Made by a program: the position numbers and the translations under genes
Part shown: positions 17,802-59,685 of the stretch, in pieces
Position numbering within the stretch: position 1 is the stretch's first letter
How the letters are laid out: each line of letters starts with the position of its first letter
The notes under the pieces: generated by a model
What the model saw: the letters and a program-made list of their open reading frames with translations, nothing else
Database searches by the model: none
What the model was told of the DNA's origin: nothing
DNA from: Candidatus Levyibacteriota bacterium
GTDB taxonomy: Bacteria; Patescibacteriota; Microgenomatia; Levybacterales; UBA12049
Reading direction: 5' to 3'
Assembly (NCBI GenBank): GCA_049519175.1
Contig: JBEKQZ010000001.1
Span: 224,043 to 288,042 of the forward strand
DNA: 64,000 nt

Positions 17802-17805
17802 TTTT

Positions 17806-20939: not shown

Positions 20940-20942
20940 TTT

Positions 20943-22490: not shown

Positions 22491-22492
22491 CT

Positions 22493-40677: not shown

Positions 40678-41634
40678 ATGAAGAATAATCCGATCTATAA
40701 TACGATAAAATTAAAAGTTTTTAATAGAGGTTCTGTGGCGATATATCCAATAGTTTTAAAAAATCTTATGATAGATAAAGTTCGAACACTATTTTTATTA
40801 ATTCTAGTTAAAACTATTCGTTCCCGTTTTCTCGTAAAAACAATACGGGAGATTGACATTGATAAGCAGTCTATTTTGCTACGGCTTGAGAATGGGACAT
40901 CGTTTTTTCTTCCTACAGATAAGATTGACTCTTTAAATGGACTGCTGAGCGGAAAATTCGAAGAATCGGAAACCAGCCGCATGATTAAATATATTAAAAA
41001 GGGAGATGTAGTTTTAGATATCGGAGCAAATTATGGATTTTATACTGTTTTATTTTCGAAGTGGGTTGGTCAAGAAGGCAGGGTGCACGCTTTTGAACCC
41101 TTGCCATGGGCGATAACTCTGCTGGAGAAAAATTTATTGCTTAATAAAGCAACAGAAAACACTATTGTTAATAAATTTGGGTTGGGGGATAAAAAAAACA
41201 CAGCCGTAATATATAAATATGCTTGGTGTGATTCGGGATGGAGTTCTATGGAAAAACATGGTTGGATACCAACCAGCAATTCAAGATGTAAAATCATTAC
41301 GCTTGACGCTTACGTTAAAGAAAAGAAAATAAATAAGGTAGATTTCATAAAATGCGATATCGAAGGCGGGGAGCTTCCTGTATTTAAAGGGGCTCGTGCT
41401 ACATTAGCGAAATTTTCTCCTGTGATAATCTTCGAAGTTCTAAAGGCGTACGAAAAAGATTTTAACTATAAACCGCACGAGCTATATGATTATTTAACTT
41501 CATTAAATTATGACATATATAACGCGAGAGGAGATAAATTACGTTTAATTAAAAGTAATGAAAGTCATAGTATGTGGGGGTATTATTTAGCGATTCCACA
41601 TAAACATAAAAATACATTCAGCAAACATGAGTAA
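40678..41634 (+). CDS. FkbM-family SAM-dependent methyltransferase with N-terminal extension
   Basis: VLDIGANYGFYTV..VHAFEP..FIKCDIEGGELPVFKGA is typical of the FkbM (Methyltransf_21) domain. Confidence 0.75.
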   Translation: MKNNPIYNTIKLKVFNRGSVAIYPIVLKNLMIDKVRTLFLLILVKTIRSRFLVKTIREIDIDKQSILLRLENGTSFFLPTDKIDSLNGLLSGKFEESETSRMIKYIKKGDVVLDIGANYGFYTVLFSKWVGQEGRVHAFEPLPWAITLLEKNLLLNKATENTIVNKFGLGDKKNTAVIYKYAWCDSGWSSMEKHGWIPTSNSRCKIITLDAYVKEKKINKVDFIKCDIEGGELPVFKGARATLAKFSPVIIFEVLKAYEKDFNYKPHELYDYLTSLNYDIYNARGDKLRLIKSNESHSMWGYYLAIPHKHKNTFSKHE

Positions 41635-43678
41635 GAAAATATCTTCAAGAATAAAAATGCCTAGAAGAATCTTACTCTTTCTAATTTCTACATCATTTAT
41701 CCTGTTTGTCCTCTCTTTAGGCTATTTCCTTTTCGTAAATAGTGATCAGACAAATAACACACCTTACTACAAAGCGTCCGGTGCGCAAAACACTAATCTC
41801 ACGATAATTACACAAAAAGAATCGTGGTCAAAACAAAATCCTCAAAACTTGACTGAGCTATTTGCAAAAAAAACGATTGTAGGAACTTTTGTTGCGCAAG
41901 CCGATAACTTGGGGATTATCGAAATTCCTTTTGATACACATAACAGAAGTATCGATGATAAAGTCATTTTCCGCATAAAGGCAAACGGAGAAAAGAATTG
42001 GTATTTTCAAAGCGTCTACAATGCCGGTCAATTCCAAACAGATGTTCCTTTCCCTTTTGGTATTCCTGTAATCAAGAATTCTAGAAATAATAGGTATACC
42101 TTTGAAATCGAGTCGCTGGATGGAAGACCGAATAACTCAATCTCCTTAAGTAAAGCCAGTCCCTATTTCTTCAGTAAATACAAATTTTCTAAGGCAGAAC
42201 TGACCAGAAATCCTTTAACGTTGATTCAATTCATTGTTGTTAAAGCAATTAATCAGTTACCGCTTCTTACAGGTTACGAAATTGTTATCCTAGCCCTTTT
42301 TATACTTGCTCCCTTTTTACTCTATTTTGTTTTAATAGACTCTATAAGGAGGTTTAAGAAGTGGGTTGAAGCTACTATTCATTTAATTTCCGCGGCCAAG
42401 ATTAAAACATATCTGTCGCGATTGAAAAGGGTAAATTATAATTTGAGATACGCATTGGATAGAAAAGATAAGATAAGACTTTGCTGTTCGATAATTAGCG
42501 TTGGTTTGTTCTCCTCAGTGGCTTTTCATTATTTTCAAGGAGCGTATTATGGGCAAGGCTTTCCTCGGAATACATTTATTCCTAACTGGTTTTTTGGTGA
42601 TTTTTTTGCCGTTTTTGAACAATGGAGAAACTATCAATTTAACGGGATAGGGTTTGGTTTGTCTTATTTTCCGGGGACATATCTATTTATGGATTTGATG
42701 ACAAAATTATTTAATGCATACGTTGCGGTTCTGATAATGCTTATTTCTTTTACAGTCTTTCTATTTGCCTATACCTATAAAAATGTCAAAATTAATAAAA
42801 TCCTGGAATCTCTACGGAATGCTTTTATTATTTCCCTAATGTCTTATCCTTTTCTCTTTGCATTTCAAACTGCCAATCTTGAAATAATTACTTTTATAGC
42901 TGTCTGTCTGTTCTTTATCTTTTACAAAAAACATAAAACACTTAGTGTACTAGCTCTAGCATATGCCATTTCGATGAAACTTTTCCCCGGAGTTTTTATC
43001 ATCTTGTTATTGTTGGAAAAAAGATTTAAAGACATATTCTTAACTTGTGTATTCACTGTTTTCTTTACAATTTTACCTCTGCTTATTTTTGACGGAGGAT
43101 TCAACAAGGGCATCGGAAACTATATAAATAATTTTAAAGGAAGCCAACAACTATATTCCAACTTAATGATTCTAGGCGAGTCGGGGAATCATTATGGTCA
43201 TAGTCTATTAAATGGTTTTAGAGCTCTGTTTCCTTGGGTATTTCCTTCATCAATAGAGCCTATTCTATTTTCCTATATAATTTTTATTTCAATCATTACA
43301 TTGGCTATTATTGGTTATCTTTTCTTCTTTGAAAAAACATTCTGGAAAAGGGTAGCCTGTTTAGTGATGATGATGAACCTATTTCCTTTCACTTCTACAG
43401 ACTACAAGTTACTTTATATTTTTTTACCCTTGTTTTTTCTGATAAATCATTTAAAAAAAAGTAAGTATGATGCTATTTTTATCATCCTTTTCTCTTTGTT
43501 ATTGATTCCTAAGGATTACTTTTATTTTAATAATAACGCTTTTTCTAATCTTAATGTTGTTGCTAATCCAATTATTATGTCAACAATATTATTGTTAATC
43601 ATTTTCTTAGGGATTAAACAGAGCTTAGGTAAGGTAAGAAATACAGTCAATAATAAATTATTTAGTAAAATAGCGTAA
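41627..43678 (+). CDS. Membrane protein: signal-anchor + novel conserved extracytoplasmic domain + GT87/DUF2029-like polytopic GT-C-like domain
   Basis: N-dom: DNLGIIEIPFDTHNRSIDDKVIFRIK..NWYFQSVYNAGQFQTDVPFPFGIPVI..FEIESLDGRPNNSISL. C-dom: AYAISMKLFPGVFIILLLLEKRFKD..LPLLIFDGGFN. It is the tandem paralog of the 43684 gene. Confidence 0.5.
   Translation: MSKKISSRIKMPRRILLFLISTSFILFVLSLGYFLFVNSDQTNNTPYYKASGAQNTNLTIITQKESWSKQNPQNLTELFAKKTIVGTFVAQADNLGIIEIPFDTHNRSIDDKVIFRIKANGEKNWYFQSVYNAGQFQTDVPFPFGIPVIKNSRNNRYTFEIESLDGRPNNSISLSKASPYFFSKYKFSKAELTRNPLTLIQFIVVKAINQLPLLTGYEIVILALFILAPFLLYFVLIDSIRRFKKWVEATIHLISAAKIKTYLSRLKRVNYNLRYALDRKDKIRLCCSIISVGLFSSVAFHYFQGAYYGQGFPRNTFIPNWFFGDFFAVFEQWRNYQFNGIGFGLSYFPGTYLFMDLMTKLFNAYVAVLIMLISFTVFLFAYTYKNVKINKILESLRNAFIISLMSYPFLFAFQTANLEIITFIAVCLFFIFYKKHKTLSVLALAYAISMKLFPGVFIILLLLEKRFKDIFLTCVFTVFFTILPLLIFDGGFNKGIGNYINNFKGSQQLYSNLMILGESGNHYGHSLLNGFRALFPWVFPSSIEPILFSYIIFISIITLAIIGYLFFFEKTFWKRVACLVMMMNLFPFTSTDYKLLYIFLPLFFLINHLKKSKYDAIFIILFSLLLIPKDYFYFNNNAFSNLNVVANPIIMSTILLLIIFLGIKQSLGKVRNTVNNKLFSKIA
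42961..43092 (+). repeat. About 132-nt tract nearly identical (1 mismatch) to 45012-45143 in the tandem paralog (gene-conversion tract)
   Basis: By direct comparison, atatgccatttcgatgaaacttttccccggagtttttatcat[c/t]ttgttattgttggaaaaaagatttaaagacatattcttaacttgtgtattcactgttttctttacaattttacctctgcttatttttga is shared. The flanks diverge. Confidence 0.7.
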
Positions 43679-43683
43679 GGTAT

Positions 43684-45732
43684 ATGAGCAAACAGATTTT
43701 TTTAATCAGGCGCATTTCCAAAAGAACATTTTTCTTTTTGATTCTCACATCACTTGTCCTGTTTGTTCTCTCTTTAGGATATTTCCTTTTCGTAAATAGC
43801 GATCAAACAAATAACACCTATTATTATAAAGAGTTAGGTAGACAGGATACCAGCATTACAACGATTACGTTAAAGGAATCTTGGTCAAAGAATGTCTTAC
43901 AAGACAGAAAAGCATTGCTGACGAAAGAAGTCATTGAAGGAAATTTTATCGCGCGAACCGATAATTTGGGAACAATCGCCATACCATTTGATACACACAA
44001 TAAGAGCATTAACGATAAGGTAATTTTCCGTTTGAAAGAAACGGGGCAGAAAGAGTGGTATTTTCAAAGTATTTACAATACGAGTCAATTTCAAAATGAC
44101 ATTCCTTTTCCCTTCGGTTTTCCTATAATCACAAATTCAAAGGATAAAGCTTACACATTCCAGATAGAATCATTAACAGGGAAATATAATAATTCTATTT
44201 CCCTTAATAAGACTAATGGCTATTTCTTTAGCAAATATCAATATTCTAAAGCGGAATTAATAAACAATCCTTCCAGACTGGTTCAATTTCTTACTATTAA
44301 AATCAATGCTCAATTACCATCATTTACTCCAATTGAGGGTTTTTACGCACTCCTCTTTGCTTTAGCTCCCTTTTTACTCTACCCGATTCTAAGAACGCGT
44401 AGTAAGCAGCTTAAAAAGCTGATTAGGACTAAGAGGGCACTATTTACAATAACTAACATCAAAACATATCTTTTGTATTTAAAAAGAGTCAGTTATAATT
44501 TGAGTTACTCTTTGAAGAGAAAGGATAAAATTAAAATCTGCGCTTTAATAGTTAGCGCCGGTTTTTTCTTCGCGGTGGGCTTTCATTTTTTTCAAGGGAT
44601 ATATTATGAAAGAGGGTTTCCCGTAAATTCGTTCTTGCCTAATAATTTTTTTGGTGATTTTTTTATTGTTTTCAATCAATGGAACTGGTATAAATTTAGC
44701 AGTTTTGGTTTAAATTATTTTCCGGGAGCCTATCTTATTGTCGATTTATTAACGAAACTTTTTACTGCATATACAGCAATTGTTATTTACCTATTCTTCT
44801 TTATTACCTTTATATTCTCATACACATACATAAATGTTAAGACAGATAAAGTAATCGAATCTTTGCAATATGCTTTTATCATTTCCTTAATGTCTTATCC
44901 TTTTCTTTTCGCTTTTAACACCGCTAATTTTGAAATAATTACCTTTATATCTATTTGTTTATTTTTTATTTTTTACAAAAAACATAGAACACTTAGTGCT
45001 CTAGCCCTGGCATATGCCATTTCGATGAAACTTTTCCCCGGAGTTTTTATCATTTTGTTATTGTTGGAAAAAAGATTTAAAGACATATTCTTAACTTGTG
45101 TATTCACTGTTTTCTTTACAATTTTACCTCTGCTTATTTTTGATGGAGGATTTAATAACGGAGTAGGGAATTATATTAATCATTTTAGCCGGAGTATGAG
45201 CGCATACGCCGAGTTAATGGTCGTAAGCGGCGCAGGAAATCACTACGGCCACAGTTTGTTAAATGGTCTTTTTGCGCTTTTTACCTGGATGTTTCCTCTT
45301 CTAAGACAAATTATGCTTCCGTATATAATTATTATTTCGATAAGTTCAGTAGTGATTATTTTATATCTTATATTCTTTGAAAAAATATTTTGGAGAAGAG
45401 TCGCATGCCTGGTTATGATGATGAATCTTTTTCCCATTGTTTCTACCGATTACAAATTGCTTTATGTTTTTATACCGTTGTTTTTATTTATTAATTATTT
45501 CAAGAAGGACAAATACGATACTCTTTTTATTATTCTTTTTAGCTTATTATTAATCCCTAAGGATTATTTTTATTTCAATGGCGACCCATACATGAGCTCT
45601 AATATTGTTGCTAATCCGTTGATTATGTCGGTGATATTATTAGCTATTATATTATCAGGATTAAAACCATTAAGTCTTTTTGCAAACGTGATTCGAAGAA
45701 GATTTCGAATTTTGAGTAATTTGGCAAGTTAA
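43684..45732 (+). CDS. Membrane protein: novel conserved N-terminal domain + GT87/DUF2029-like GT-C-like domain (tandem paralog)
   Basis: DNLGTIAIPFDTHNKSINDKVIFRLKETGQKEWYFQSIYNTSQFQNDIPFPFGFPIIT..FQIESLTGKYNNSISLN. C-dom identical peptide AYAISMKLFPGVFIILLLLEKRFKDIFLTCVFTVFFTILPLLIFDGGFN. Confidence 0.5.
   Translation: MSKQIFLIRRISKRTFFFLILTSLVLFVLSLGYFLFVNSDQTNNTYYYKELGRQDTSITTITLKESWSKNVLQDRKALLTKEVIEGNFIARTDNLGTIAIPFDTHNKSINDKVIFRLKETGQKEWYFQSIYNTSQFQNDIPFPFGFPIITNSKDKAYTFQIESLTGKYNNSISLNKTNGYFFSKYQYSKAELINNPSRLVQFLTIKINAQLPSFTPIEGFYALLFALAPFLLYPILRTRSKQLKKLIRTKRALFTITNIKTYLLYLKRVSYNLSYSLKRKDKIKICALIVSAGFFFAVGFHFFQGIYYERGFPVNSFLPNNFFGDFFIVFNQWNWYKFSSFGLNYFPGAYLIVDLLTKLFTAYTAIVIYLFFFITFIFSYTYINVKTDKVIESLQYAFIISLMSYPFLFAFNTANFEIITFISICLFFIFYKKHRTLSALALAYAISMKLFPGVFIILLLLEKRFKDIFLTCVFTVFFTILPLLIFDGGFNNGVGNYINHFSRSMSAYAELMVVSGAGNHYGHSLLNGLFALFTWMFPLLRQIMLPYIIIISISSVVIILYLIFFEKIFWRRVACLVMMMNLFPIVSTDYKLLYVFIPLFLFINYFKKDKYDTLFIILFSLLLIPKDYFYFNGDPYMSSNIVANPLIMSVILLAIILSGLKPLSLFANVIRRRFRILSNLAS
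45012..45143 (+). repeat. Partner copy of the 42961-43092 near-identical tract
   Basis: See the 42961-43092 entry. Confidence 0.7.
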
Positions 45733-45741
45733 CCATAAGCT

Positions 45742-48700
45742 ATGAAAATCATATCTGGGAAAAAAACTCTATTACTTTTACTTTTCTTATCAATCGGCAT
45801 ATTTGCTTTATGTTTCTTTTATGTTTTATTTATAAATAAAGGGGCATTGGATAGCGGAGATTATTATAAATCCTCTCAGGGACAGTATGGCTTGACAACT
45901 CTTATAGCAAAAGAATCTTTAACAAAATCTCCGGCAAATCAGGAATTATCGGCAAAAAAAACACTTAATCAAAATTTTACCGCTCGATTTGATAACTTGG
46001 GAACAATAGCCCTGGCATTTGATACAAACAACAGAAGTATTAACGACAAAGTTGTTTTTCGCCTAAAACAGAGAGATCAAAAAGACTGGTATTACCAAAA
46101 TACATACAACGCTAATCAGTTCCAGAATAATATTCCATTCCCTTTTGGTTTTCCTGTTATATCAGATTCAAAGAATAAATCCTACTCAATACAAATTGAG
46201 TCATTGGAGGGTAAGTCCGGGGAGTCCTTAATTATAAGCGAAAACAATAAAAATTTTCTTAGCATATATAAATATTCTAAATCGGAATTAATCAATAATC
46301 CTAAGGCGATGATTCAATTCTTTGTAAATAAAATTAATACACAAATTCAGTTAATTGCAATAAATGAAATAATTTTGATGACATTCATAATTGTTTTGCC
46401 CCTGCTTATGTATCCGTTATTAAAACCTTTCCCCTTAAAGATTATTTTAAGACATAAAGCACTTATTTTTTTGATAGTTTTGCTTACCGGCATGTCTCTA
46501 ATTTTATATAGGAGTTATATTTTTGGCGGAAAACTTTTTCTGTTCGAAGATTTCGGAAGTGATTCCGTAAGAGTATCGCTGCCGACTTATATTTTTCTTT
46601 TTGATTGGTTTAGAAATGGAATGCCATTATGGTCAGATAAAATGGGAATAGGAACCAGCGTTTTGTCTCATAACGAAATTATTTTCGACCCCTTTACATA
46701 TATCCTGTTTCTCTTTGGTAAAGCAAACATAATTTATATGTTCGTGTATATGGTTATAACGAAAATAATTCTGGCAGGGGCATTCTTTTGGGCATTTTTA
46801 GGAAAATTCAGCAAATACAAATTGTCTTCTTATGCGAAGATTATCGGGGCGCTAACTTACGCATTTGGGGGATATATGATTGTTACAGGTCAAAACTATG
46901 TCTTTGCGACGATGTATGTTTACCTACCGTTGATTCTATTAGGATTTGAAATATGGTTGCAAAGCAAAAAGAAATGGCCATTAATTTTAATGTTGACTCT
47001 TACAGCTTTATATTTCTTTTATTTCTTTTATATGACCGCTGTTTTCTTCGCCGTTTATGCTATTTTTAGATATTTTACAGTCTACGTTTACAAACCCAAA
47101 CATTTCTTAAAATATTTGTTCACATTGGCTTCATATGGCCTTGTGGCAATAGGAATAAGCGCTTTCTATTGGTTGCCATCAATGATATTAACGCTCAGCA
47201 ATATAAGAATTGCTTCATCCTCGCAATCTCTCGATACTCTGTTTACATTTAACCCAAGCAACGTAATAACAGTATTTTCTCGTCTTCTTGGAGTAGATGC
47301 ATTGGGTGGCCCAATGAATTACGTGGGGCAGGATGCCGATTACTTTCAGCTCGTTACTTACGCAGGAATTATAACAGCCTTATTAGTGCCTCAAATATTC
47401 TACCAGTTGAGTAAAAAAACAAAAAAACCATTTATTATTTTTAGTATAGTGTTGGCGATTTTTTTGTTCGTTCCGTTTTTCTCCTATGTTCTAAACGGCT
47501 TTAGTATTATTTCTTATCGCTGGATATATTTCTTATTTTTCGTTTCGTCGCTCTTTTTATCTCTGGTTGTAAACTTTATTTTCGAAAAAAAGAGGATAAG
47601 TTTTAGACTCCTTATATTAACTGCCGGTTTTTTAGTTCTAATTTCATTAATCGCAATAATCTACCCGGTTCCTATAAAGGCGGATGGGATATTTAATATA
47701 TTAAATTCATACATCCATTCCTCAATAGTTCATAGATATCTTTTAAATAACTTCAGGGTGTTTCTTAAGGACTACATTTTTATAGCTGCATACCTAGTGT
47801 TGATTTTCCTGCTCTTTAAAACAAGATATAAGAAATTTATCATGGCCACAGTCTTAGCTTTAGTCTGTATAGAATTGGTTTGGTTCCCTACGCTCTTTAT
47901 AAATAATAGATTAACTACTTCCCCCGACCCTATAAAAAATCATCTTGGCTATTTTGATTATACAAATGAAGCGGTAGCCTATATTAATTCTATCGACACG
48001 AGTATTTATAGATTGGATAAGTCTTATGATTCGGTTAAATCCGAATATGGAATAATACCTTCAGATAATGAAGCAATGGCCCAAAATTACAGGGGGCTTA
48101 AAAACTACGTATCCAATAATCAACCAAACTATATCCGCTTTCTGCAGAAAGCGGATATATTTGTATATTATCCTAATCCCAATTTTCCTCCGGCAAAAGG
48201 AATGAAGCCCGAAGACTTTAAAGACGCTAATCTAAATTACATTAACGGAGTAGGAAATAGATACATATTGCAAACTTTTTTAGGGGTTAAATACTATTTA
48301 ACCAATAAATATTTTGACGGTCAGTTGCCTGGTTATTTCCATTATGTAAAAACAGTTGATGGTATTAGTATTTACGTAAATGATTATTATTTACCTTTGG
48401 GAATGACTTTCGACAATTTTATAACCAGCAATGAATTTGCCAAGCTAAATAATTCTTCCAAAGATTTAGCGTTGTTATCATTTGTCGTTATTGATGATCC
48501 AAAAGAATTGGGAAACATAATAAGTAGAAGCGATGCAAGTAAATTAAGCGAAATCTCACCGGAAAATATAGGGAACATCATCGGTGACCGAAGAAAAGAT
48601 TCATTGAAATTAATTTTCTACAAAGAAGATAGTCTTAAGGGAAGAATTTCTATTGTAGGAAATAAAATTCTTGTTTTAACAATTCCTTACGACAAGGGTT

Positions 48701-49005: not shown

Positions 49006-50278
49006 CAAAGTAATAAAAGTTGCGTTAGCTATTGATATCCGGTTAAAGTTAGGCAAAAAAAAATATATTTTTTACGCCACTACTTTTTTAGGTTTTTTGA
49101 TATTTATCCTAAGCGGTTTATTAACAAGGGGATATAGTCTCTACAGCCTCTTTCAATCTAATAAAACGGATTATTTTATGGATTTTTATAATCCATTATC
49201 GGAATTACTCAACGGACCCTATTCTCATGGGTCAATTTACCCACCATTGCCGCTTTTAATTTACAAGTTTTTACTTCGTTTTGTGCCATATAATATAGTC
49301 TCTCATGGGGCTTTCGCAATTAGAGCCAGTCAAATAGGAGAAATCGTATTTCTTTTCTATTCACTAATAACTTTGTTGACATTCCTGGTTATTCTTAGAG
49401 AAGTAAAGAGAGGGAAAATAATGGAAATATACGGTTTTATCTTCTTCGTTTTATTTTCCGCTCCATTTCTTTTTATGTTTGAGCGGGCAAATATAATTTT
49501 TATTGCTCTACTATTCTCAATGGTATTTGTCTTTTTTAAAGATAGCAAAAACCGTATTATCCGTGAAGTCGCTCTTATCTGTTTGGCGATATCCGCAGGA
49601 GTTAAGCTATACCCTGCTTTATTTGGATTATTGCTCTTAAAAGAAAAGCGGTTTAAAGATACTTTTAGATTATTATTATATGGTATAACAGCATTTATCT
49701 TGCCGTTCTTTGCCGTTGGGGGAATTAGTCAGCTGCTGGTTCTAATTAAAGATATCTTAACTACGTCTAATGGTGCTTTAGATTGGGGAGTAGGTTATGC
49801 GGTGAATATCTTAAGTATTGTCAGAATATTTTATGGTTTCATTGGAGATTTCGGTAAGGGCCCTATTTTCATAGGGAATACTCTGTCTTATCTCGTTTTA
49901 CTTTTTGGAGTCATTTCCGTGTTTCTCCTAAAATCAAAATGGAAAACTGTTGCACTACTTTCTTCGCTTATGATTATGGTTTCGTCCGTAAGCTATGTTT
50001 ATTCGTTGATATTTATGATAATTCCCTTGATTATGTTTTTGGATAGCGAAGAGAAACTAAAACGGATGGATTATTTATATCTTATCTGTTTTATTTTTAT
50101 TTTCGTGCCGCTTACTTTGAATAATATCGATTTTATAAATCGTGGATTTGGGTCGTCAGCTAGGCCTTTAACTCTAAACGTGCTTATTCAAAATATAGCA
50201 CTTCTGACTATGACGGTTACTTTAATTCTTCAAGGATTCCAAGAGGGGTTGAAAGGGAAGAATGCTAAAAAAAATTAA
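48995..50278 (+). CDS. GT87/DUF2029-like polytopic membrane protein (same C-domain family as 41627/43684, lacking the N-domain)
   Basis: YPPLPLLIYKFLL and AISAGVKLYPALFGLLLLKEKRFKD..LPFFAVGG align with the C-domain motif of the 41627/43684 proteins. It contains a 9-A run at 49055-49063 near its 5' end. Confidence 0.5.
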   Translation: MKFNKVIKVALAIDIRLKLGKKKYIFYATTFLGFLIFILSGLLTRGYSLYSLFQSNKTDYFMDFYNPLSELLNGPYSHGSIYPPLPLLIYKFLLRFVPYNIVSHGAFAIRASQIGEIVFLFYSLITLLTFLVILREVKRGKIMEIYGFIFFVLFSAPFLFMFERANIIFIALLFSMVFVFFKDSKNRIIREVALICLAISAGVKLYPALFGLLLLKEKRFKDTFRLLLYGITAFILPFFAVGGISQLLVLIKDILTTSNGALDWGVGYAVNILSIVRIFYGFIGDFGKGPIFIGNTLSYLVLLFGVISVFLLKSKWKTVALLSSLMIMVSSVSYVYSLIFMIIPLIMFLDSEEKLKRMDYLYLICFIFIFVPLTLNNIDFINRGFGSSARPLTLNVLIQNIALLTMTVTLILQGFQEGLKGKNAKKN

Positions 50279-52067
50279 CTCAATAAATAGACTTGCAGTG
50301 CTAATCCCTATCTTCGTTGTGTTCATCTATAACCTGATTTTCTTCAATCGATTCTACCCAATTACAGAAGGATGGTTTTCCACATACGCTTGGTTGTTCA
50401 ATCATGGAGAATTTCCATATAGAGATTTTTATTTCCTATTACCTCCTCTCTACTTAATTAAAATGAGCATATTCACAACTTTATTTGGATATAGTTTTCT
50501 CTATTTAAGAATTGTCGGTATATTCGTAATACTTCTAATGACCTATTTTTTATACAAAAATCTCCAAATTATTTTTGGAGCAGCGATTGCCGTTTTTGTA
50601 GCGATAGTCGGTATAATTTATTATCAATCAGGCAACGCCCATATTACGTATGATTTTACGCAATTTGTCATTTTGTATGGGTTGATCCAGTCGTATTTAC
50701 TTTTAAAATATGTAAGTACTTCCGGTTCTAAAATTCAGGCAGGTGTAAAGTGGGTTTTCTGGGCGGGAATTTTTGCCGGACTGGCTTTTTTGACAAAACA
50801 AAGTAACGGCATAATGATAACTGCCTTTTCCTTTATCGGATTATCTCTGTTATCTTTGTCGAAGGCAAAAAAAGAGTTTTTAAAAATTTTAACCGCATAT
50901 ATTGGTGGATTTATTATTCCGGTATCAATAATATCCTTATGGCTATTGGTTAATTCGGCTTTCGTTCCATTTGTTCAGCAGATTTTTTCCGGTGCGATAG
51001 GGGCAAAAGGAGGATTTAGCCAGATATTTTTTTCCTGGTTTAAAGGCATATTAACCTACAACTTTATTTTTAGAGTTGGACAGATATTGCAAATACTGCT
51101 GGTTCTCGGTTACTGGATGCCTCTTTTTATTTCCAAGAAGAAAAGGGATGGCGGTATAAGCAAAGTTTTTATCCTCCTTGCATCTTTATTAATGCTTCCC
51201 GTTGTTATTCTGCCGTTAATTTTAAATAAAAATACAGTTAATGTGTTGTCAAATTTTGGCTGGCAAGGCATTAATATTATTATAGTTGCGGCAATCTCGG
51301 TTCCCTTAACCTACATATTAATTTCTTTTCTTCTAACCATTTTTAAAAAGCCTTTTAATAAAAAAATCTTTTTATTTTCCTTTGTTGCCCTCGGTTTTAT
51401 TTATGGAACTGGAGCATCAGCGGGTGTAACCGAAGTCGGAGCTTTTTTTGGATTTTGTCTTTCCGTTGCCTTAATGCTTCATTTTAGGTCAATATTTGGT
51501 TTGGGGAAAATTTTTATCATATTCTTTTGCATAAGCTTCTGTTTGATGTTGGTTAAAGCAAAGTTCGAACGTCCGTACTTCTGGTGGAATGTTACAAGTC
51601 CGGATATAAGATCGAATCTTGTAACGGTTAAAAATATGCCTTTGTTAAGAGGAATTTATATGTCACAAGAAAATGCTAATTTAATAGAGCAGGTTACTTC
51701 GGAAATAGACAAAGGTTCAAAGCCGGGGGATCCTATTCTTGTTTTCCCCAATACGCCTATCTTTTATCTAATTGCAGACAGAAAACCACCGGGGAAAGCT
51801 CCAGTTCAATGGTTTGATGTTTTGACGGATCAGATGGCTATAAAAGAAGCAGAAGCGATAAGGAAGAACCCACCGAAAGTAATTGTTTATCTGGATCTTG
51901 GTGCATCTGTTTGGGAAGCTCACGAAAGTTTATTTAGGAATGGCAAGCCAAGCGGACAACGCGAGATAGTCGAAGCCTTTATGGAAGTCATCAAATCCAA
52001 GAAAATGAATATCTCAAAAAAATATGAATTACCTAACAATGTTACTCTAACAGTATGGAGAGAATAA
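50262..52067 (+). CDS. Polytopic membrane protein, putative GT-C-like glycosyltransferase, with C-terminal soluble domain
   Basis: 601 aa with more than 12 TM segments and an N-term EFPYRDFYFLLPP motif. The soluble C-terminal 150 aa is PGDPILVFPNTPIFY... Confidence 0.4.
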   Translation: MLKKINSINRLAVLIPIFVVFIYNLIFFNRFYPITEGWFSTYAWLFNHGEFPYRDFYFLLPPLYLIKMSIFTTLFGYSFLYLRIVGIFVILLMTYFLYKNLQIIFGAAIAVFVAIVGIIYYQSGNAHITYDFTQFVILYGLIQSYLLLKYVSTSGSKIQAGVKWVFWAGIFAGLAFLTKQSNGIMITAFSFIGLSLLSLSKAKKEFLKILTAYIGGFIIPVSIISLWLLVNSAFVPFVQQIFSGAIGAKGGFSQIFFSWFKGILTYNFIFRVGQILQILLVLGYWMPLFISKKKRDGGISKVFILLASLLMLPVVILPLILNKNTVNVLSNFGWQGINIIIVAAISVPLTYILISFLLTIFKKPFNKKIFLFSFVALGFIYGTGASAGVTEVGAFFGFCLSVALMLHFRSIFGLGKIFIIFFCISFCLMLVKAKFERPYFWWNVTSPDIRSNLVTVKNMPLLRGIYMSQENANLIEQVTSEIDKGSKPGDPILVFPNTPIFYLIADRKPPGKAPVQWFDVLTDQMAIKEAEAIRKNPPKVIVYLDLGASVWEAHESLFRNGKPSGQREIVEAFMEVIKSKKMNISKKYELPNNVTLTVWRE

Positions 52068-53569
52068 GAAGATATTCTAAAAGAAAGATAGCGTTGTTTG
52101 CGATATTGGTTATCGTAAATGTAATTCTCTATTTAGTTTTATATTCCGCGTCCCGGATATCAAGTAATCAAATAACCATAAAGCAAGTATCGGGATTATC
52201 TTTTAACAGCTCTACAGACAAACTCCAACCGGTGTTTAGTAATCTACCAAGATTCTATAGAACTTTTAATTTCGAATTTGAGTCCGATTTTCTACCGAAA
52301 GACGATAATTATGGAAATATCTTTCAGACGGGGAGTGATCCCAAAACCTTAAGAGTTGAACTAATTCATCCCGCATCTCTGCAGGTTGTCATCGGATACA
52401 AGGATGACCCTGGGCAGAAAGTATATCCGATTTCGGATAAAGTCAACTTAAATAAATGGAACCATATTCAGTTAACTTATTCTTCAAACCAAAAATTGTA
52501 TGTAAAGTTAAACGATGAACCGGCTGTCTTTCTTAATGACAACAAATATGATGTCGCTATTAATGATTTGGTTTTAGGGGCAGGTTACAATAGGCAAAGA
52601 ACATTTCAGGGGTTAATAAAAAAGACAAACTTTAAGGTTACTTTCAGTGAGGCAAATGCTTTGTTGTTTATTTTATCACTGATTTCGAAATATTACTTCA
52701 TACTAGTATTTTCCCAGTTGTTGTTTTTCTATGCAAAATATTTGAGGAAACAAAGCGTAAAGATAAAGGGCCGGGATTATAATGACATATTCTTCGGTTT
52801 TCTGATAACATTTTCAATTACTGCTTCTATAGTTATACTAACAGGAATATTTTCGTCTCCATTGACCGGCCAGAGGAAGTGGATACCTTATCTTGGTTTA
52901 CTTATACCTTCAGTTGTATTAGGTATGAATTATTTAAAAATAAAGTGGTTTGAAAAAAAATACTTTTTAGCAATAGCCGGATTGCTTTCATTTACTATAT
53001 TAATACTTGGTACCCGTAACTATGAATTTCTTTCCTGGTTCGGGGTCTCCGGCGTGCTCATGGTCTGTTGTTGCATATCGATTATACCGTTAACTAGGTA
53101 TTTTTCTTTCTTCTTCGCCGGAACATTAATCTTTCTTTTTGCGATTAATTCAGTTGTTTTCATGAATAATTATGGATCGCAAGGTTACATATGGACAGCG
53201 TTGGTAGTAACGGTCGTTATATGCGCATTTCTGTCTACGCTATTTTCGCAGAATAATCATCTCTGGTGGGCTAAGGTAAATAAAATCGGATTTGCTGTTC
53301 TCCTTGCTATCTCCTCTGCGCTTGCATTACGCTCTGATTCACTATTCCTTGGATCCTCTGAGTTTCACTGGAATTACTATACCGGAGTAATCCAGACTAT
53401 ACGTAGTGGCGGAGAATTGTTATGGAGTGCTCCTTCACAATACGGATTTCTAAGCGTATTATTGCCGTCGGTTTTGCCATGGACGTCAAGGAATTCATTT
53501 TTTATTTTTCAGGCTGTCTTATTCTTTATTTGCTCTCTTATTATAATAAAAACTATATATATGCTTTAA
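52055..53569 (+). CDS. Membrane protein with N-terminal extracytoplasmic LamG/ConA-like lectin domain followed by polytopic TM domain
   Basis: After a signal anchor: NKWNHIQLTYSSNQKLYVKLNDEPAVF...NDLVLGAGYNRQRTFQGLIKK (the LamG_3-like W.H..lt......LYv.G.....l.iG....f.G.i pattern). About 9 TM follow. It may be one gene with 53613-54791 (see findings). Confidence 0.5.
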   Translation: MERIRRYSKRKIALFAILVIVNVILYLVLYSASRISSNQITIKQVSGLSFNSSTDKLQPVFSNLPRFYRTFNFEFESDFLPKDDNYGNIFQTGSDPKTLRVELIHPASLQVVIGYKDDPGQKVYPISDKVNLNKWNHIQLTYSSNQKLYVKLNDEPAVFLNDNKYDVAINDLVLGAGYNRQRTFQGLIKKTNFKVTFSEANALLFILSLISKYYFILVFSQLLFFYAKYLRKQSVKIKGRDYNDIFFGFLITFSITASIVILTGIFSSPLTGQRKWIPYLGLLIPSVVLGMNYLKIKWFEKKYFLAIAGLLSFTILILGTRNYEFLSWFGVSGVLMVCCCISIIPLTRYFSFFFAGTLIFLFAINSVVFMNNYGSQGYIWTALVVTVVICAFLSTLFSQNNHLWWAKVNKIGFAVLLAISSALALRSDSLFLGSSEFHWNYYTGVIQTIRSGGELLWSAPSQYGFLSVLLPSVLPWTSRNSFFIFQAVLFFICSLIIIKTIYML

Positions 53570-53612
53570 GAATAAAGCAGTATTCATACCAATAGCATTA
53601 ACGGCATTATCC

Positions 53613-54791
53613 TTGTTCTATTTTGCTGACCCTGCCATTATTGGGCCCACTCTTTACCCCTCATCAAGTGTTATGAGATTTTTCTGGGTTTATGTTCTAC
53701 TTTTTGCCGTATTAATAGATTATTACAAACGTAGCGTTTTGGATGGAAAGATTAAATGGTTTGTTTTGAGCGCTTATATATTAGGGGTGTTGTGGTCTGC
53801 CGAAAGCATGCTTTACTGTACGGCAATATACGGAACATATTTACTGAGCTCCGCGATAGCAATGTATAAGCTGAAAAAAAATACCAGTTTTAGGTTTTTG
53901 TTTATAAACCTTTTGGTGATTTTCCTTGTGTTGATTAGTACTAACATCTTCTATTTAACAACAACAAGCCATTTTCCGGATTTAAATATGTATTTTATGT
54001 ATGCTTTTGGTTACGCAAATGGCTATGGAGAGTTAGCAATAACCCCCTGGGGGATCTATTGGGCAATTATAATTGTTTTTTCCGCTATCGTTTTTGTCTT
54101 ATGGCGTTTATATTCTGCAAAGAAATACACAGAGTGGGTGGTCATATCCGTTTGCTTAGCCACATTATGGATTGTAACAAGCTACTATATTGGAAGAGCA
54201 GTTACCAATAATCTTACGGCGATTTTGCCTTTAATCTTTTACGTTTTTATTGTGATGTCGGCGACATTAATGGAAGTAAAGCTTTTTACATACAGGTTCC
54301 TTCTTACCTTGGTTTTTTTGCCGTGGATAATAGTCGGAATAATGGGCGGGATTGGTAATCCGCAATTTATCGATAAACTGCGGCAATTCAAATTCGCGGA
54401 AAATATTAACAGTAAAAGCTTTAAGCCGGATAATGAACTAAATAGCATCTTCAAATCCTTAAATATTGTTAATGGTGTTAGAATAGCTTATTACGGAGAT
54501 CCATATAATAATCCGGTTATTCCCAACGGCAAGGGAGGATATGTGGATCCTATTGCTGGCATGCCTCTTCCCATGACGCTTCTGGAAGAACCAATACCAG
54601 AGCAAAAAAGAGATATTATTGTAGAAAGGTTTTTAAATGGCATAAAAGGACCAATATATTTGATACATAGAAAAAAAGAGAGTTTAAACAGATTATCTGA
54701 TTGGAAAACATATTTTCAACAGAAGTATTCTCTCAAAAAAGAAGATACTGGAAAGAGTGAGTATGAGGTCTTTATAGTTAGTGACAAATAG
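53613..54791 (+). CDS. Membrane protein (about 7 TM) with C-terminal soluble domain; possibly the 3' part of the 52055 gene
   Basis: ORF in a different frame from the upstream gene, beginning at TTG 53613 (first ATG at 53673). Function not recognisable. Confidence 0.35.
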   Translation: MFYFADPAIIGPTLYPSSSVMRFFWVYVLLFAVLIDYYKRSVLDGKIKWFVLSAYILGVLWSAESMLYCTAIYGTYLLSSAIAMYKLKKNTSFRFLFINLLVIFLVLISTNIFYLTTTSHFPDLNMYFMYAFGYANGYGELAITPWGIYWAIIIVFSAIVFVLWRLYSAKKYTEWVVISVCLATLWIVTSYYIGRAVTNNLTAILPLIFYVFIVMSATLMEVKLFTYRFLLTLVFLPWIIVGIMGGIGNPQFIDKLRQFKFAENINSKSFKPDNELNSIFKSLNIVNGVRIAYYGDPYNNPVIPNGKGGYVDPIAGMPLPMTLLEEPIPEQKRDIIVERFLNGIKGPIYLIHRKKESLNRLSDWKTYFQQKYSLKKEDTGKSEYEVFIVSDK

Positions 54792-54828
54792 AGATTATAT
54801 ATATTATATACATAATACCTTAAATAAC

Positions 54829-56574
54829 ATGCATCGGTTTTCATATATTATTAGGACAATTATACTATTTTTTATATTACTTGTAATTACTATATTAATT
54901 AATTCTAACGTAGATAACAGTAATATTTATTATAAATTTAAGAATAACGTATCAGGTGGATTTACTACCATTACACAAAAAAATCAATGGAATGATGTTG
55001 CAAATACTAAAATACTACTGGCCCATAAAAAATTAGACTTAGATTTTACTGCACAATCTGATTACTTAGGTACCATAGCAATCCCATTTGACACGAACAA
55101 TGAGAGTATTCATGACAGAATTGTTTTCCGTATAAAAGAAGCTTCGGAAAAAAACTGGTTTCATCAAAATGTCTATGATACTAACCAAATTCAGGATAAT
55201 GTACCTTTCCCATTCGGTTTTCCTATCATTCAACATTCCAAAGGTATTCATTTTAAAGTCGAGATAGAATCCATGGATGGAAGAAAAAATAATCATTTGT
55301 CTCTAAATACTAATAATAGGTATTTCCTCGCAGAGTATATTTATTCAAAAGCAAATATTTTTCGAAGTCAAAGAGTGCTCTCTCAGTTCTTATATTTTAA
55401 AATTTATGAACACGTTTCTACCTTAACTATACCAGAATTATCGCTCATTATTTTAATATCTTTGATCATTCAGATTCTTCCCTATAAGTCATTATTTTCC
55501 ACCAAGAATAGAAAAAAGTATACAGAAAGTCCCAAGAAGAGTTTTACAAACAGAGTAGATTGGGTTGATGCAGGAAAAGGTTTGGGATTAATTCTAGTTA
55601 TATTTGGTCATTTGGTTACTATGGGTACAGTGCTTTCAAATTGGATTTTTAGTTTTCATATGCCACTTTTTTTCTTTTTATCGGGCTATGTAACTAAAAT
55701 TCCAAATAGAAGTATAAGTTACTCTTCAAAAAGAATATTTGTAAATTTGATAGTGCCATATTTTGTTTTTGTAACAGTCGGATTGCTTGTATCTTTGGCT
55801 ATACCAATATGGAGACATATAAATATTGATCAATTATTAGTTGAACTTTTTTATTCTGGTGTACCAAGTAGTATACAAGTTTCTCAATTATGGTTTCTAA
55901 TTTGTTTAGCGGTAACTCAATTTATGGCAATTGTTTTTTTCAGGTTAAATCATAAAGATATAACTATAACCATTATGTTAGTTTTTGTATTCGCTTTGAT
56001 AGCGTATTTAATTAATATATATCAAATTGGTTTTTGGGTACACGGAGTTTATTATCGTTTACCTTGGATGACAGATACAGCTTTTATGGGTTTATTTTTT
56101 TTCTTGATAGGATTTTACTCAAATTCTTTAAAGATTTTTTCCAAATTGACCTCACATTTTTCATATTCAAATATTGTTAAAATTTTGATTTTTTTAATAA
56201 TAAGTTTTTATTTTGGGACTCAATTAAACCATGGAGCTAGCTTAAGTGCAAACTTTTATGGAAATCTAACGTATTTTCTCATTGCTGCTTTAGCAGGTAT
56301 TATATTTATTATATATATATCAAGATTTTTTGAGAATAATAAACTGCTTATATATTTAGGAAAAAATACACTTCCGATATATGCAAGTCAATCATTTATT
56401 CTTTCTTTATTTCAGTACTTATTAAATTTAATCTTACATAAAAAATTTGCAATTATGGTAAATGTTCCGTTATTGTTATGCTTTTTGGGTCTAGTCTTAA
56501 TTATTGCAGTGCTTATAATAGTTTCTATTGTTTACAATAATACTATCCAAAAACTTATTTTAAAACTGCAATGA
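54829..56574 (+). CDS. Membrane O-acyltransferase (acyltransferase-3/OafA family) carrying the novel conserved N-terminal domain
   Basis: N-dom: SDYLGTIAIPFDTNNESIHDRIVFRIKEASEKNWFHQNVYDTNQIQDNVPFPFGFPII..VEIESMDGRKNNHLSLN. Acyl_transf_3 start: RVDWVDAGKGLGLILVIFGHLV, with about 10 TM. ATG at 54829. The ORF-track start at 54781 is GTG. Confidence 0.65.
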   Translation: MHRFSYIIRTIILFFILLVITILINSNVDNSNIYYKFKNNVSGGFTTITQKNQWNDVANTKILLAHKKLDLDFTAQSDYLGTIAIPFDTNNESIHDRIVFRIKEASEKNWFHQNVYDTNQIQDNVPFPFGFPIIQHSKGIHFKVEIESMDGRKNNHLSLNTNNRYFLAEYIYSKANIFRSQRVLSQFLYFKIYEHVSTLTIPELSLIILISLIIQILPYKSLFSTKNRKKYTESPKKSFTNRVDWVDAGKGLGLILVIFGHLVTMGTVLSNWIFSFHMPLFFFLSGYVTKIPNRSISYSSKRIFVNLIVPYFVFVTVGLLVSLAIPIWRHINIDQLLVELFYSGVPSSIQVSQLWFLICLAVTQFMAIVFFRLNHKDITITIMLVFVFALIAYLINIYQIGFWVHGVYYRLPWMTDTAFMGLFFFLIGFYSNSLKIFSKLTSHFSYSNIVKILIFLIISFYFGTQLNHGASLSANFYGNLTYFLIAALAGIIFIIYISRFFENNKLLIYLGKNTLPIYASQSFILSLFQYLLNLILHKKFAIMVNVPLLLCFLGLVLIIAVLIIVSIVYNNTIQKLILKLQ

Positions 56575-56584
56575 GCTTCAACCG

Positions 56585-56614
56585 TTGACAAGCATCCTAA
56601 GTTTGCCATACAAT
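56585..56614 (+). promoter_or_regulatory. Near-consensus sigma70-type promoter TTGACA-N18-TACAAT upstream of the methyltransferase gene
   Basis: TTGACA at 56585-56590 and TACAAT at 56609-56614, with the ATG at 56632. It lies in one of the few intergenic gaps. Confidence 0.4.
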
Positions 56615-56631
56615 CAATCACATAAATTTCT

Positions 56632-59461: not shown

Positions 59462-59685
59462 AAATACAGGATATATTATTTTTAGTTATATTGGTAATTT
59501 TGTTTTTTAAGCACAAAGAGAATTCTTTTGTGGCTTTTGGCTTACTGTGTTTTTTTCTGGCAATGCCATTTTTCTATTTTTGGGTTTTCTTTACGGCGGA
59601 AAGACTCGTCTACTATGGAACATTATTAGTTCTAATAGAAATTTTATTTAAATTCATTCAATTTGGAATAAAGCCCCGGAAATGA
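59458..59685 (+). CDS. Small (75 aa) hydrophobic membrane protein immediately upstream of GtrB-like gene
   Basis: ATGA overlap with the upstream stop. 2-3 TM segments. Its position is analogous to gtrA in gtrAB(C) clusters, but it is too short for a canonical GtrA. Confidence 0.35.
   Translation: MKIQDILFLVILVILFFKHKENSFVAFGLLCFFLAMPFFYFWVFFTAERLVYYGTLLVLIEILFKFIQFGIKPRK

Follow-up and report, generated by a model that had tools for sequence, protein, structure and literature searches.

The stretch of DNA analysed here (the window; 64,000 nucleotides of a Candidatus Levyibacteriota contig) encodes, on its forward strand, four membrane proteins that begin with the same N-terminal module, which we call DOM, and continue into different enzymes. 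Two adjacent genes encode DOM fused to a GT87-family domain: a 683-residue protein (41627–43678; identified by ORF, Pfam and the DOM profile) with a GT87 match of 37.4 bits at residues 349–521, and its 682-residue tandem paralog (43684–45732; ORF and Pfam), with a match of 42.4 bits (PF09594, cutoff 25). They are followed by a DOM-YfhO fusion of 1087 residues (45742–49005; ORF, Pfam and NCBIfam), in which YfhO scores 232.9 bits (PF09586, cutoff 28.5) and the C-terminal tail resembles PgfM1/PgfM2 at scores far under the equivalog cutoffs. The fourth is a DOM-acyltransferase-3 (AT3) fusion (54781–56574; ORF and Pfam) with an Acyl_transf_3 score of 86.8 bits over profile positions 2–325 of 326 (PF01757, cutoff 31). 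A preliminary description of this DNA had proposed these C-terminal classes, and all of them score above the Pfam cutoffs. The starts it gave at 41627, 43684 and 45742 were confirmed; for the AT3 fusion its ATG at 54829 (581 residues) is one of two starts, the other being a GTG at 54781 that gives 597 residues. NCBI uses the ATG for a member of the same cluster, annotated only as ‘acyltransferase family protein [Candidatus Levyibacteriota bacterium]’. The AT3 fusion has no SGNH match in Pfam and ends with the AT3 domain, so that DOM here precedes an enzyme of the AT3-only type.

The remaining genes of the region, all on the same strand, include relatives of these enzymes that lack DOM. A 427-residue GT87-family protein (48995–50278; Pfam 27.5 bits, cutoff 25) is negative with the DOM profile, in line with its original description as a fifth protein carrying the GT87-like part alone. 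It is followed by a PMT_2-family GT-C protein of 601 residues, assigned by Pfam (50262–52067), and by a gene that an apparent -2 frameshift near 53553–53565 divides into ORFs of 504 and 392 residues (52055–54791), laid out as a transmembrane (TM) helix, a ConA/LamG-like N-terminal module and a polytopic chassis. In total, no fewer than nine GT-C genes of the window, besides the fused ones, have no DOM. Downstream of the AT3 fusion lie a u720-like polytopic protein of 720 residues (57299–59461; Pfam search and synteny), a 75-residue ORF with two TM helices (59452–59682), and a GT2 of 311 residues with C-terminal TM helices (59735–60670; architecture and synteny), which from its architecture we read as a GtrB/DPM1-like polyprenyl-phosphate sugar synthase. 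A u720-like homolog lies directly upstream of a standalone DOM gene in other Microgenomates, and at other loci a GT2 of the 311-residue type shares a conserved operon with DOM genes. The 75-residue ORF occupies the syntenic slot of a standalone DOM gene with a TM bundle, and is similar to the final helix pair of the family’s C-terminal bundle (13.9 bits, a score reached by none of 500 shuffles).

The window contains four copies of DOM and no more, and their similarity is not due to chance: in a six-frame ORF scan the four match the family profile with E-values of 1e-57 to 1e-66 and the next-ranked ORF reaches only E = 0.34. The profile envelopes span 41759–42277 (E = 1.2e-66), 43816–44337, 45859–46368 (E = 3.8e-59) and 54922–55437 (E = 1.1e-57), the last being the most divergent of the four. 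Over the N-terminal ~215 residues the proteins align with 40–60% pairwise identity and 61–67% mean column identity, which bears out the alignable N-terminal domain first noticed. The variety of C-termini was also borne out to the extent that three unrelated partner classes are present; the two GT87 fusions share 64% identity from end to end and are tandem duplicates of one fused gene, so the window holds three independent partner classes rather than four independent fusions.

By profile search, DOM is a family unannotated in Pfam-A, NCBIfam and PDB sequences, as had been suspected from the sequence. Searches of Pfam-A (2025 copy) at E ≤ 10 returned only sub-threshold noise, and NCBIfam release 20 and PDB sequences gave no matches. 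DUF6275 (E = 0.0064), ARID, Ig_GP210 and Scabin-like hits were rejected: they are short, differ between paralogs and fall under Pfam cutoffs. A match to IS1 transposase in the cytoplasmic linker of the 683-residue protein (E = 0.0012), also below its Pfam cutoff, was rejected as well. A literature search of open-access papers found no account of DOM.

The module was initially described as a signal anchor followed by a domain. The anchor is present, and a second TM helix also closes the domain, so that the unit is a two-helix hairpin: TM helix, ~150-residue extracytoplasmic domain, TM helix, with both ends cytoplasmic. In the 683-residue fusion, TM1 spans residues 15–33, DOM 45–217 and TM2 219–237, followed by a K/R-rich cytoplasmic linker and GT87. 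The outward orientation of the domain, proposed earlier, is supported by the positive-inside rule, with K/R-rich tails before TM1 and after TM2. The K+R counts before TM1, after TM1, before TM2 and after TM2 are 6/0/1/4, 4/1/1/7, 3/2/1/3 and 1/2/1/5 in the window proteins, and the family mean around TM1 is 2.88 versus 1.22. It is supported as well by the AT3 partner, which requires a cytoplasmic N-terminus: in AT3 domains of 10 TM helices both termini are cytoplasmic (PMC9558356). Since both ends of the hairpin are predicted to be cytoplasmic, DOM can precede any membrane enzyme with a cytoplasmic N-terminus (N-in) and leave its topology undisturbed.

The structure predicted for the second copy (43813–44328) is a jelly roll with a pLDDT of 90.7. 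A Foldseek comparison of this model, carried out as the preliminary description had suggested, placed the fold among those of lectins and carbohydrate-binding modules (CBMs): like a CBM, DOM is predicted to be a discrete all-β sandwich, and CBMs and lectins head both fold-search lists. Against CBM structures the TM-scores are 0.32–0.53, with 5–11% identity and E ≥ 1.9e-4, and the lists also contain sandwiches of the capsid, TNF-like, seipin and toxin types; at the level of the model, the likeness to CBMs is generic jelly-roll similarity. The closest named families with a galactose-binding-like jelly roll (CBM6, CBM35, CBM15, CBM32 and CBM8) share 5–11% identity with DOM at TM-scores ≤ 0.53 and give no profile match. 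Seipin, a eukaryotic lipid-droplet protein, also places a luminal β-sandwich between two TM helices; it has no sequence similarity to DOM, and its structural likeness does not exceed that of many other sandwiches. A chain-length regulator of the Wzz type was also considered: the topology of such polysaccharide co-polymerases matches, but DOM is predicted to be all-β rather than a helical coiled coil, and on this ground, together with the lack of a Wzz match in Pfam, the candidate was rejected. Across the family, a set of polar residues is near-invariant (D68, R73, K75, E76, W82, Y84, Y88, S109, K112, E117, E119 and S120, numbered from window position 43813). Judged from the alignment, this family-wide invariance agrees better with a shared ligand or protein interface than with the recognition of glycans that differ between lineages. 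The variable segments are residues 1–39 and a loop at residues 121–136.

An exhaustive search of 1.84 billion proteins extended the family to 1,629 representatives of 50%-identity clusters at E ≤ 1e-3, and its taxon-labelled members belong to Microgenomates-group CPR. Most members are not fusions but standalone genes, with or without a bundle of 4–5 TM helices. The fused members recur in other genomes with several partners, a pattern for which a check had been proposed: GT87, YfhO, PMT_2, AT3, an unnamed u392-type chassis of ~900 residues and many unannotated polytopic proteins. The closest relative of a given DOM usually carries another partner class, which indicates repeated shuffling. A GtrA-like flippase identity for the 4–5-TM bundle was rejected, as none of 69 mid-length DOM-plus-bundle proteins matches GtrA in Pfam.

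Every DOM locus examined is a glycan cluster. An operon of a u720-like gene, DOM, a polytopic protein and a GtrB-like GT2 occurs in about 10 of 42 loci, and the downstream neighbours of DOM genes include DUF2079 and PMT_2. The 37 related loci are a sample obtained with restrictive alignment patterns, and therefore yield no per-genome copy counts. In strain L001, a standalone DOM gene of 246 residues (7092–7832) overlaps by 4 nt the following gene (7829–9301), which encodes a 490-residue protein with 13 TM helices. Relative to L001, the window island at 52066–56630 is replaced as a whole. A simple module swap between the two was rejected, since the 490-residue protein downstream of the standalone DOM of L001 does not match the 504/392-residue gene of the window.

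Orthologs of two window genes, compared by sequence, show DOM to be optional and exchangeable on the same enzyme chassis. Two relatives of the frameshift-split gene at 52055, P0133 and P0214 (~60% identical), carry DOM at the N-terminus; P0212 (77% identical) carries a ConA/LamG-like module, as the window gene does; and P0215 (58% identical) has no N-terminal module. Similarly, P0189 and P0094 are DOM-fused orthologs, 61–62% identical to the DOM-less PMT_2 protein at 50262–52067. The assignment of the module that alternates with DOM as ConA/LamG-like is suggestive: its Pfam scores of 21.4 and 19.0 bits lie under the cutoff of 27.6, and its AF2 model, built from four sequences, has a pLDDT of 46, so that the fold search on that low-confidence model is likewise suggestive.

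We propose, at about an even chance, that the DOM hairpin is a putative lectin/CBM-type accessory through which surface-glycan enzymes would bind their acceptor. The cassette comprises ~215–240 residues: an N-in TM helix, a ~150-residue jelly roll on the outer face, a short amphipathic helix and a returning TM helix, either fused ahead of an N-in polytopic enzyme or encoded by a separate gene beside one. DOM would bind an extracytoplasmic acceptor, a surface glycan or a lipid-linked precursor, near the membrane surface and offer it to the active site of the glycosyl- or acyltransferase that is fused to it or lies beside it; both the binding and the identity of the ligand are what we infer. DOM is read as an optional binding accessory because of its CBM-like fold, its modular spread, the glycan-cluster context, the exchange with a ConA-like module and the precedent among GT-C enzymes. 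As is usual for CBMs, it is contiguous with carbohydrate-active enzymes, in the GT87, YfhO, PMT_2 and AT3 fusions. Counting against this reading are the generic character of the fold similarity, the many DOM-less GT-C genes of the window, and the family-wide polar invariance, which would be unusual if the glycans bound differed between lineages. The preliminary description had also suggested a module for acceptor recognition or polymer binding, which might direct several modification enzymes to one surface glycoconjugate; this interpretation is partly supported, though the fact that most family members are not fusions qualifies it.

The GT-C precedent comes from EmbA/B/C with a C-terminal CBM, AftD with three CBMs and the GT136 enzyme ORF12 with a C-terminal CBM, in which, as in DOM, a β-sandwich lies on the outside of a GT-C enzyme that uses a polyprenyl-phosphate sugar. 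The CBMs of EmbC, AftD and ORF12 are reported to bind the acceptor and are not always required (PMC11127046; PMC3044687); residues 1–502 of ORF12 from Citrobacter youngae are described there as still active (PMC11127046; PMC3044687; bioRxiv 10.1101/2019.12.22.885152). Close orthologs likewise differ in whether they carry DOM, and acceptor binding is putative for DOM. The arrangement differs: the known CBMs are C-terminal soluble appendages, whereas DOM is N-terminal and framed by a pair of TM helices of its own; in sequence it is related neither to these CBMs nor to any Pfam family; and, unlike them, it also occurs standalone, with a 4–5-TM bundle, and on acyltransferase-3 enzymes. A further contrast is with the CAZy families CBM6, CBM35, CBM15, CBM32 and CBM8, which belong to secreted glycoside hydrolases; DOM, tethered to the membrane at its two ends, accompanies biosynthetic enzymes. 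The nearest parallel to the DOM-AT3 fusion is the AT3-SGNH group (OafA, OafB, OatA), which also combines AT3 with an extracytoplasmic accessory that aids acceptor handling, and in which extra TM helices set the topology (PMC9558356; PMC7448272). SGNH is C-terminal and catalytic and adds one TM helix, whereas DOM lies at the N-terminus, brings two TM helices and shows no SGNH motifs. A review of AT3 proteins lists only SGNH and alanine-racemase (VanT) fusions, without an N-terminal accessory domain or any use of the term ‘N-terminal’ (PMC9558356). In the GtrA/GtrB/GtrC, CsbB/GtcA/YfhO and PPPRS-MATE flippase-GT136 systems, as in the window, a GtrB-like GT2 stands beside GT-C transferases in strain-variable tailoring loci (PMC11127046); the three-component glycosylation systems so described have no DOM-like hairpin protein.

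Several of the same observations could be accounted for by protein docking. DOM might be a scaffold that forms homo- or hetero-oligomers or engages a common partner, for example a u720-like protein or a protein of the S-layer or wall, and gathers the tailoring enzymes into one complex, with no carbohydrate binding. We regard this as the most serious competing explanation, though a rather unlikely one. The charged and aromatic residues hardly vary with partner or lineage, DOM is fused to or encoded beside polytopic enzymes (with the overlapping genes of L001 as an example), the standalone form lies next to u720-like proteins in the conserved operon, and oligomerising sandwiches (seipin, TNF-like and capsid proteins) are among the fold matches. 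Against these stand the CBMs and lectins at the top of both fold-search lists and the ConA-like, lectin-type module that replaces DOM on the same chassis; moreover, the lack of any N-terminal module in the close ortholog P0215 sits better with a binding accessory that enzymes can do without than with a subunit needed for assembly.

The membrane tether at both ends, the near-invariant Arg73 and Lys75, and the operon shared with a GT2 read as GtrB-like and with GT-C enzymes that use polyprenyl-phosphate donors suggest another, improbable, role, in which DOM, with its seipin-like topology, would bind the (pyro)phosphate head group of a polyprenyl-linked donor or acceptor at the outer leaflet and feed it to the enzymes. 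A conserved ligand of this kind would account for the family-wide invariance. However, the acyl donor of AT3 is cytoplasmic and is not a polyprenyl-phosphate sugar (PMC9558356), so that only a lipid-linked acceptor would fit the AT3 fusion; most GT-C enzymes in the window, which presumably use the same type of donor, lack DOM; and dozens of unrelated sandwiches resemble DOM at least as well as seipin does.

Polar conservation as strong as that of DOM is seen more often at active sites and ion-binding sites than where CBMs determine their specificity, and E117-x-E119 on one β-strand, together with D68, R73, K75, Y84, Y88 and W82, could in principle form the active site of a small jelly-roll hydrolase, transglycosylase or lyase that trims or remodels the glycan of the partner enzymes. 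We consider this very unlikely: the core of only ~125 residues is under the size of known jelly-roll glycoside hydrolases and lyases, the top structural matches are non-catalytic CBMs, and no catalytic family in Pfam, NCBIfam or PDB sequences matches. The conserved acidic residues could equally make a structural Ca2+ site, of a kind that occurs in many CBMs. That the resemblance is trivial, arising from one recently duplicated fused gene or from low-complexity or TM composition, is negligibly probable, since this would suit the tandem GT87 pair but YfhO, AT3 and GT87 are mutually unrelated partners, the conservation sits in the predicted soluble β-sandwich rather than in the TM helices, and the family spans its 1,629 representatives and many architectures.

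A broader role may tentatively be suggested, although we think it somewhat doubtful: DOM would be a plug-in specificity or adaptor cassette, made possible by the topological neutrality of its hairpin, movable between glycosyltransferases and acyltransferases, exchangeable for a ConA-like module, or supplied in trans as a separate subunit, by which Microgenomates could re-target their tailoring enzymes in the course of strain-level surface diversification. The island replaced at 52066–56630 relative to L001 would then be one such exchange event. To our knowledge, no earlier account of bacterial envelope biosynthesis describes acceptor-recognition cassettes being shuffled from one enzyme class to another. 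The hairpin itself offers a simple route for adding an outward-facing accessory to any N-in membrane enzyme, and the DOM-AT3 protein is a new AT3 architecture that would extend the concept of a CBM on a GT-C enzyme, known from EmbC, AftD and GT136, to acyltransferases.

The family also marks an annotation gap, being large and absent from Pfam and NCBIfam, and it labels a conserved Microgenomates operon. The CPR/Patescibacteria are mostly uncultured epibionts whose surface chemistry presumably controls host attachment, and little is known of it. The contig studied here, of ~580 kb, gives at least 64 kb to extracytoplasmic glycosylation. If DOM acts as a scaffold, it would point to a multi-enzyme glycan-tailoring complex; if it binds the acceptor, it would show how these enzymes choose their substrate and provide a testable handle on acceptor selection.

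Four plus-strand genes of the window share an N-terminal region of ~215 residues, alignable at 40–60% identity and carrying the motifs recorded in the preliminary description: two DOM–GT87 fusions (41627–43678, 683 aa; 43684–45732, 682 aa), a DOM–YfhO fusion (45742–49005, 1087 aa), and a DOM–acyltransferase-3 (AT3) fusion (54781–56574, 597 aa from a GTG), where DOM is the shared beta-sandwich domain with its flanking transmembrane (TM) helices. The AT3 gene has an alternative ATG at 54829, giving 581 aa, which is also the start in an NCBI cluster member. In a six-frame ORF scan of the window, the four genes match the DOM profile with E-values of 1e-57 to 1e-66, and no other ORF does better than E = 0.34. 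GT87, YfhO and Acyl_transf_3 are each assigned above Pfam curated cutoffs, at which the N-terminal region of the four fusions has no match; a further gene (48995–50278, plus strand) is GT87 by Pfam and lacks DOM. The earlier claims of one N-terminal domain on differing C-termini, and of a fifth protein carrying only the GT87 part, are thus borne out. Duplication of a single fused gene, raised there as a counter-explanation, applies to the GT87 fusions, which are 64% identical end to end and hence tandem duplicates, but not to the YfhO and AT3 genes, whose partners differ. Within the GT87 domain, the two paralogs contain an identical run of ~55 residues (LALAYAISMKLFPGVFIILLLLEKRFKDIFLTCVFTVFFTILPLLIFDGGFN), pointing to local gene conversion or to strong constraint. 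The DOM–AT3 protein clusters with NCBI MGA2911292.1, ‘acyltransferase family protein [Candidatus Levyibacteriota bacterium]’, and its N-domain is not recognised in public annotation.

Each copy of DOM consists, in order, of a K/R-rich N-tail, TM1, a linker of ~10–25 aa, the ~150-aa domain, an amphipathic helix, TM2 and a K/R-rich segment. The domain does follow a signal anchor, as described earlier, but it is also closed by TM2 and so is not merely downstream of an anchor. K+R counts before TM1, after TM1, before TM2 and after TM2 are 6/0/1/4, 4/1/1/7, 3/2/1/3 and 1/2/1/5 in the four window copies, and the mean around TM1 in 216 family members is 2.88 before versus 1.22 after. By the positive-inside rule, this asymmetry predicts an outward-facing domain, in keeping with the extracytoplasmic placement proposed earlier and with AT3 topology. 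The AT3 domain alone has ten TM helices, and in SGNH fusions an 11th is required for SGNH to lie outside (PMC9558356), which puts the N- and C-terminus of AT3 in the cytoplasm; whatever precedes the AT3 domain must therefore cross the membrane an even number of times, in agreement with the two-TM DOM. In the GT87 fusions, a cytoplasmic linker separates TM2 from the GT87 module, which opens with a first helix of its own (Pfam match from aa 349). Taken together, the K/R pattern and the AT3 requirement predict that DOM is a topologically neutral N-in/C-in hairpin. In a subfamily of ~200-aa proteins (P0055, P0069 and relatives; locus L042, 8001–8609), the N-terminal helix resembles a signal peptide that could be cleaved (…PAPVKA/LMAD…), in which case the C-terminal helix may be the sole anchor of the domain; two genes downstream, L042 encodes a second DOM-containing protein (9205–11340, 711 aa).

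The DOM profile, run exhaustively with HMMER against 1.84 billion cluster representatives, matched 1,629 proteins at E <= 1e-3, 997 at E <= 1e-10 and 595 at E <= 1e-30, with lengths of ~200 to 1,300 aa. Architectures were assigned in 249 members with a near-complete domain, a sample that takes in the four window proteins and ORFs from related loci, some of these ORFs being duplicates of database representatives. Hairpins followed by a 4–5-TM bundle account for 106 members and hairpins alone for 97, a count raised by ORFs that are truncated on short contigs. Another 29 carry an unknown polytopic partner, six the u392-type chassis (the polytopic part of the window gene at 52055–54791), three each GT87, AT3 or YfhO, and two PMT_2; across the family, the domain thus recurs with other catalytic partners. 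Pfam searches of 33 long representatives found AT3 in four, GT87, PMT_2 and TIG in two each and YfhO in one, the rest having no match, and 69 mid-length members gave no credible match. Two copies of DOM occur in each of P0074 (1241 aa) and P0075 (1307 aa). Recognisably labelled GTDB species-representative matches belong to Levy-, Ames-, Collier-, Woese-, Roizman-, Shapiro- and Berkelbacteria or the ‘Patescibacteria group’, so far placing DOM in Microgenomates-group CPR only. DOM genes also appear in TPA MAGs titled ‘uncultured Gammaproteobacteria’ or ‘Pseudomonadales’ (loci L003, L005, L009, L011, L016, L017, L019, L024–L027, L030–L032, L037 and L038). Several, among them L005, L024, L027 and L038, have the u720-like/DOM synteny of named Levybacteria and related Microgenomates, and because the operon is the same, the taxonomy in these titles is probably wrong or a placeholder.

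The most informative result of the analysis is that DOM is exchangeable and optional. Window ORFs 52055–53569 (504 aa) and 53613–54791 (392 aa) belong to a single gene, broken at 53553–53565, in a short TA/TG repeat (ctatatatatgc), by a -2 frameshift. With two bases put back, the ORF is ~912 aa long. In the unbroken ortholog P0212 (878 aa, 74–77% identical), the sequence across the junction is IIKTIYMCFRNKAVF; the frameshift could reflect a pseudogene, slipped-strand variation or assembly error. Close orthologs of this chassis differ solely in their N-module, which is putatively ConA/LamG-like in the window gene and P0212 (77% to the window gene), DOM in P0133 and P0214 (~60%), and absent from P0215 (58%). 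Similarly, a DOM-less 601-aa PMT_2 protein of the window has orthologs with an N-terminal DOM (P0189 and P0094, 61–62% identical). As a rule, a DOM and its closest relative are attached to different partners; the copy in the 682-aa GT87 fusion, for instance, is nearest (63%) to the DOM of PMT_2-fused P0094. DOM thus behaves as a mobile accessory, gained, lost or swapped for a putative lectin-type sandwich. P0094 (1277 aa) comprises DOM, ~460 aa and then a 62%-identical ortholog of the window PMT_2 protein, a layout that could reflect either a fusion of three parts or a gene call that reads through.

A near-identical strain, represented by JGI metagenome contig L001, matches the window at 98.7% DNA identity over 44954–52065 and ~97% from 56631 on. 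Between these, window 52066–56630, with the LamG-like polytopic gene and DOM–AT3, is replaced in L001 (7103–9945) by non-homologous genes: a standalone 246-aa DOM gene, a 490-aa 13-TM gene overlapping it by 4 nt, and a 155-aa gene. Each alternative island therefore brings its own DOM.

Every DOM locus examined lies in a glycan cluster, with GT2, GT4, epimerases, aminotransferases, Wzx-type flippases, methyltransferases and GT-C enzymes. A recurring operon among the 42 loci compared, clearest in ~10, runs u720-like polytopic protein (700–760 aa), DOM, polytopic protein (470–690 aa), GtrB-like GT2 and ~180-aa protein, with downstream partners including DUF2079 and PMT_2. In the window, the GT4 fold (Glyco_transf_4, E = 5e-8) is represented solely by its N-terminal half in the conserved ~180–190-aa gene after GtrB-like GT2 (60667–61239), so the operon has a truncated or split GT4; a 325-aa ORF (61276–62253) follows. 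Between the u720-like and GT2 genes, the position of standalone DOM in other Microgenomates is occupied solely by a 75-aa two-TM ORF (59452–59682, plus strand), which matches the last two TM-bundle helices of standalone DOM proteins, including the ‘AE’ motif, at 13.9 bits (0/500 shuffles as high). It may be a remnant or mini-subunit, and L001 has a 75-aa gene at the corresponding position. The window, from a metagenome contig of 579,907 bp, is an island with all genes on the plus strand; DOM-less GT-C genes elsewhere in it include two more YfhO (4811–7156, 8513–10783) and at least seven PMT_2 genes (12990–25412). GT-C genes are thus extremely abundant in the window: including the DOM region, more than 15 polytopic glycan-tailoring genes fall in 64 kb of this ~580-kb contig.

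An AlphaFold2 model of window 43813–44328, built from a trimmed 39-sequence alignment (pLDDT 90.7, pTM 0.85), shows eight strands and a C-terminal helix running into TM2. The best Foldseek matches, CBM6, the BC2L-C lectin N-domain and BcsB, are all weak (E >= 1.9e-4, TM-score 0.32–0.53). Model and matches together point to a predicted CBM/lectin-type jelly roll without a close solved relative, and sequence searches of PDB, NCBIfam and Pfam (E <= 10) found no credible relative, consistent with the earlier view that this is no named family. Strands beta3–beta7 form the conserved core (entropy 0.8–1.8 bits); the N-terminal segment with beta1, the beta7–beta8 loop, beta8 and the C-terminal helix are variable (2.5–3.2 bits). 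Near-invariant positions among the 249 members, numbered from window 43813, include hydrophobic or glycine residues (G53, F59, F72, F99, F101, G102, F103, P104, I106) and polar ones (D68, R73, K75, E76, W82, Y84, Y88, S109, K112, E117, E119, S120). By strand alternation, the R73/K75 and E117/E119 side chains would each be directed off the core. Polar residues conserved to this degree throughout the family suggest that its members share a ligand or interface, which is the main reason for retaining two alternatives to glycan recognition. A protein–protein scaffold or interface module is possible but unlikely; a lipid-carrier binder is improbable.

The best-supported reading, in which we place roughly even confidence, is that DOM would act as a membrane-proximal, outward-facing accessory of lectin/CBM type, holding the acceptor, a glycan or the lipid-linked form of one, in place for the transferase attached or adjacent to it. 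The preliminary description had proposed an acceptor-recognition module; outward orientation, CBM/lectin fold and unrelated enzyme partners support it in part, and the holding of glycan itself we infer. CBM-type accessory modules on extracytoplasmic glycan-tailoring enzymes have precedent, and possible parallels to DOM are the CBMs of EmbC (PMC3044687), AftD (bioRxiv 10.1101/2019.12.22.885152) and GT136 ORF12 (PMC11127046), the last of which, when isolated, binds the O-polysaccharide in its unmodified state, although the enzyme is active without this module (PMC11127046). Unlike these, DOM has an N-terminal hairpin architecture, also exists as a standalone gene, occurs on AT3 enzymes, for which a review gives C-terminal SGNH and alanine-racemase fusions only (PMC9558356), and is so far confined to Microgenomates-group CPR. 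In the PDB, NCBIfam and Pfam searches it also matches no sequence family, and so stands outside the named CBM families, while plausibly working like a CBM. We infer its function; the family itself is large, unannotated and clearly modular.
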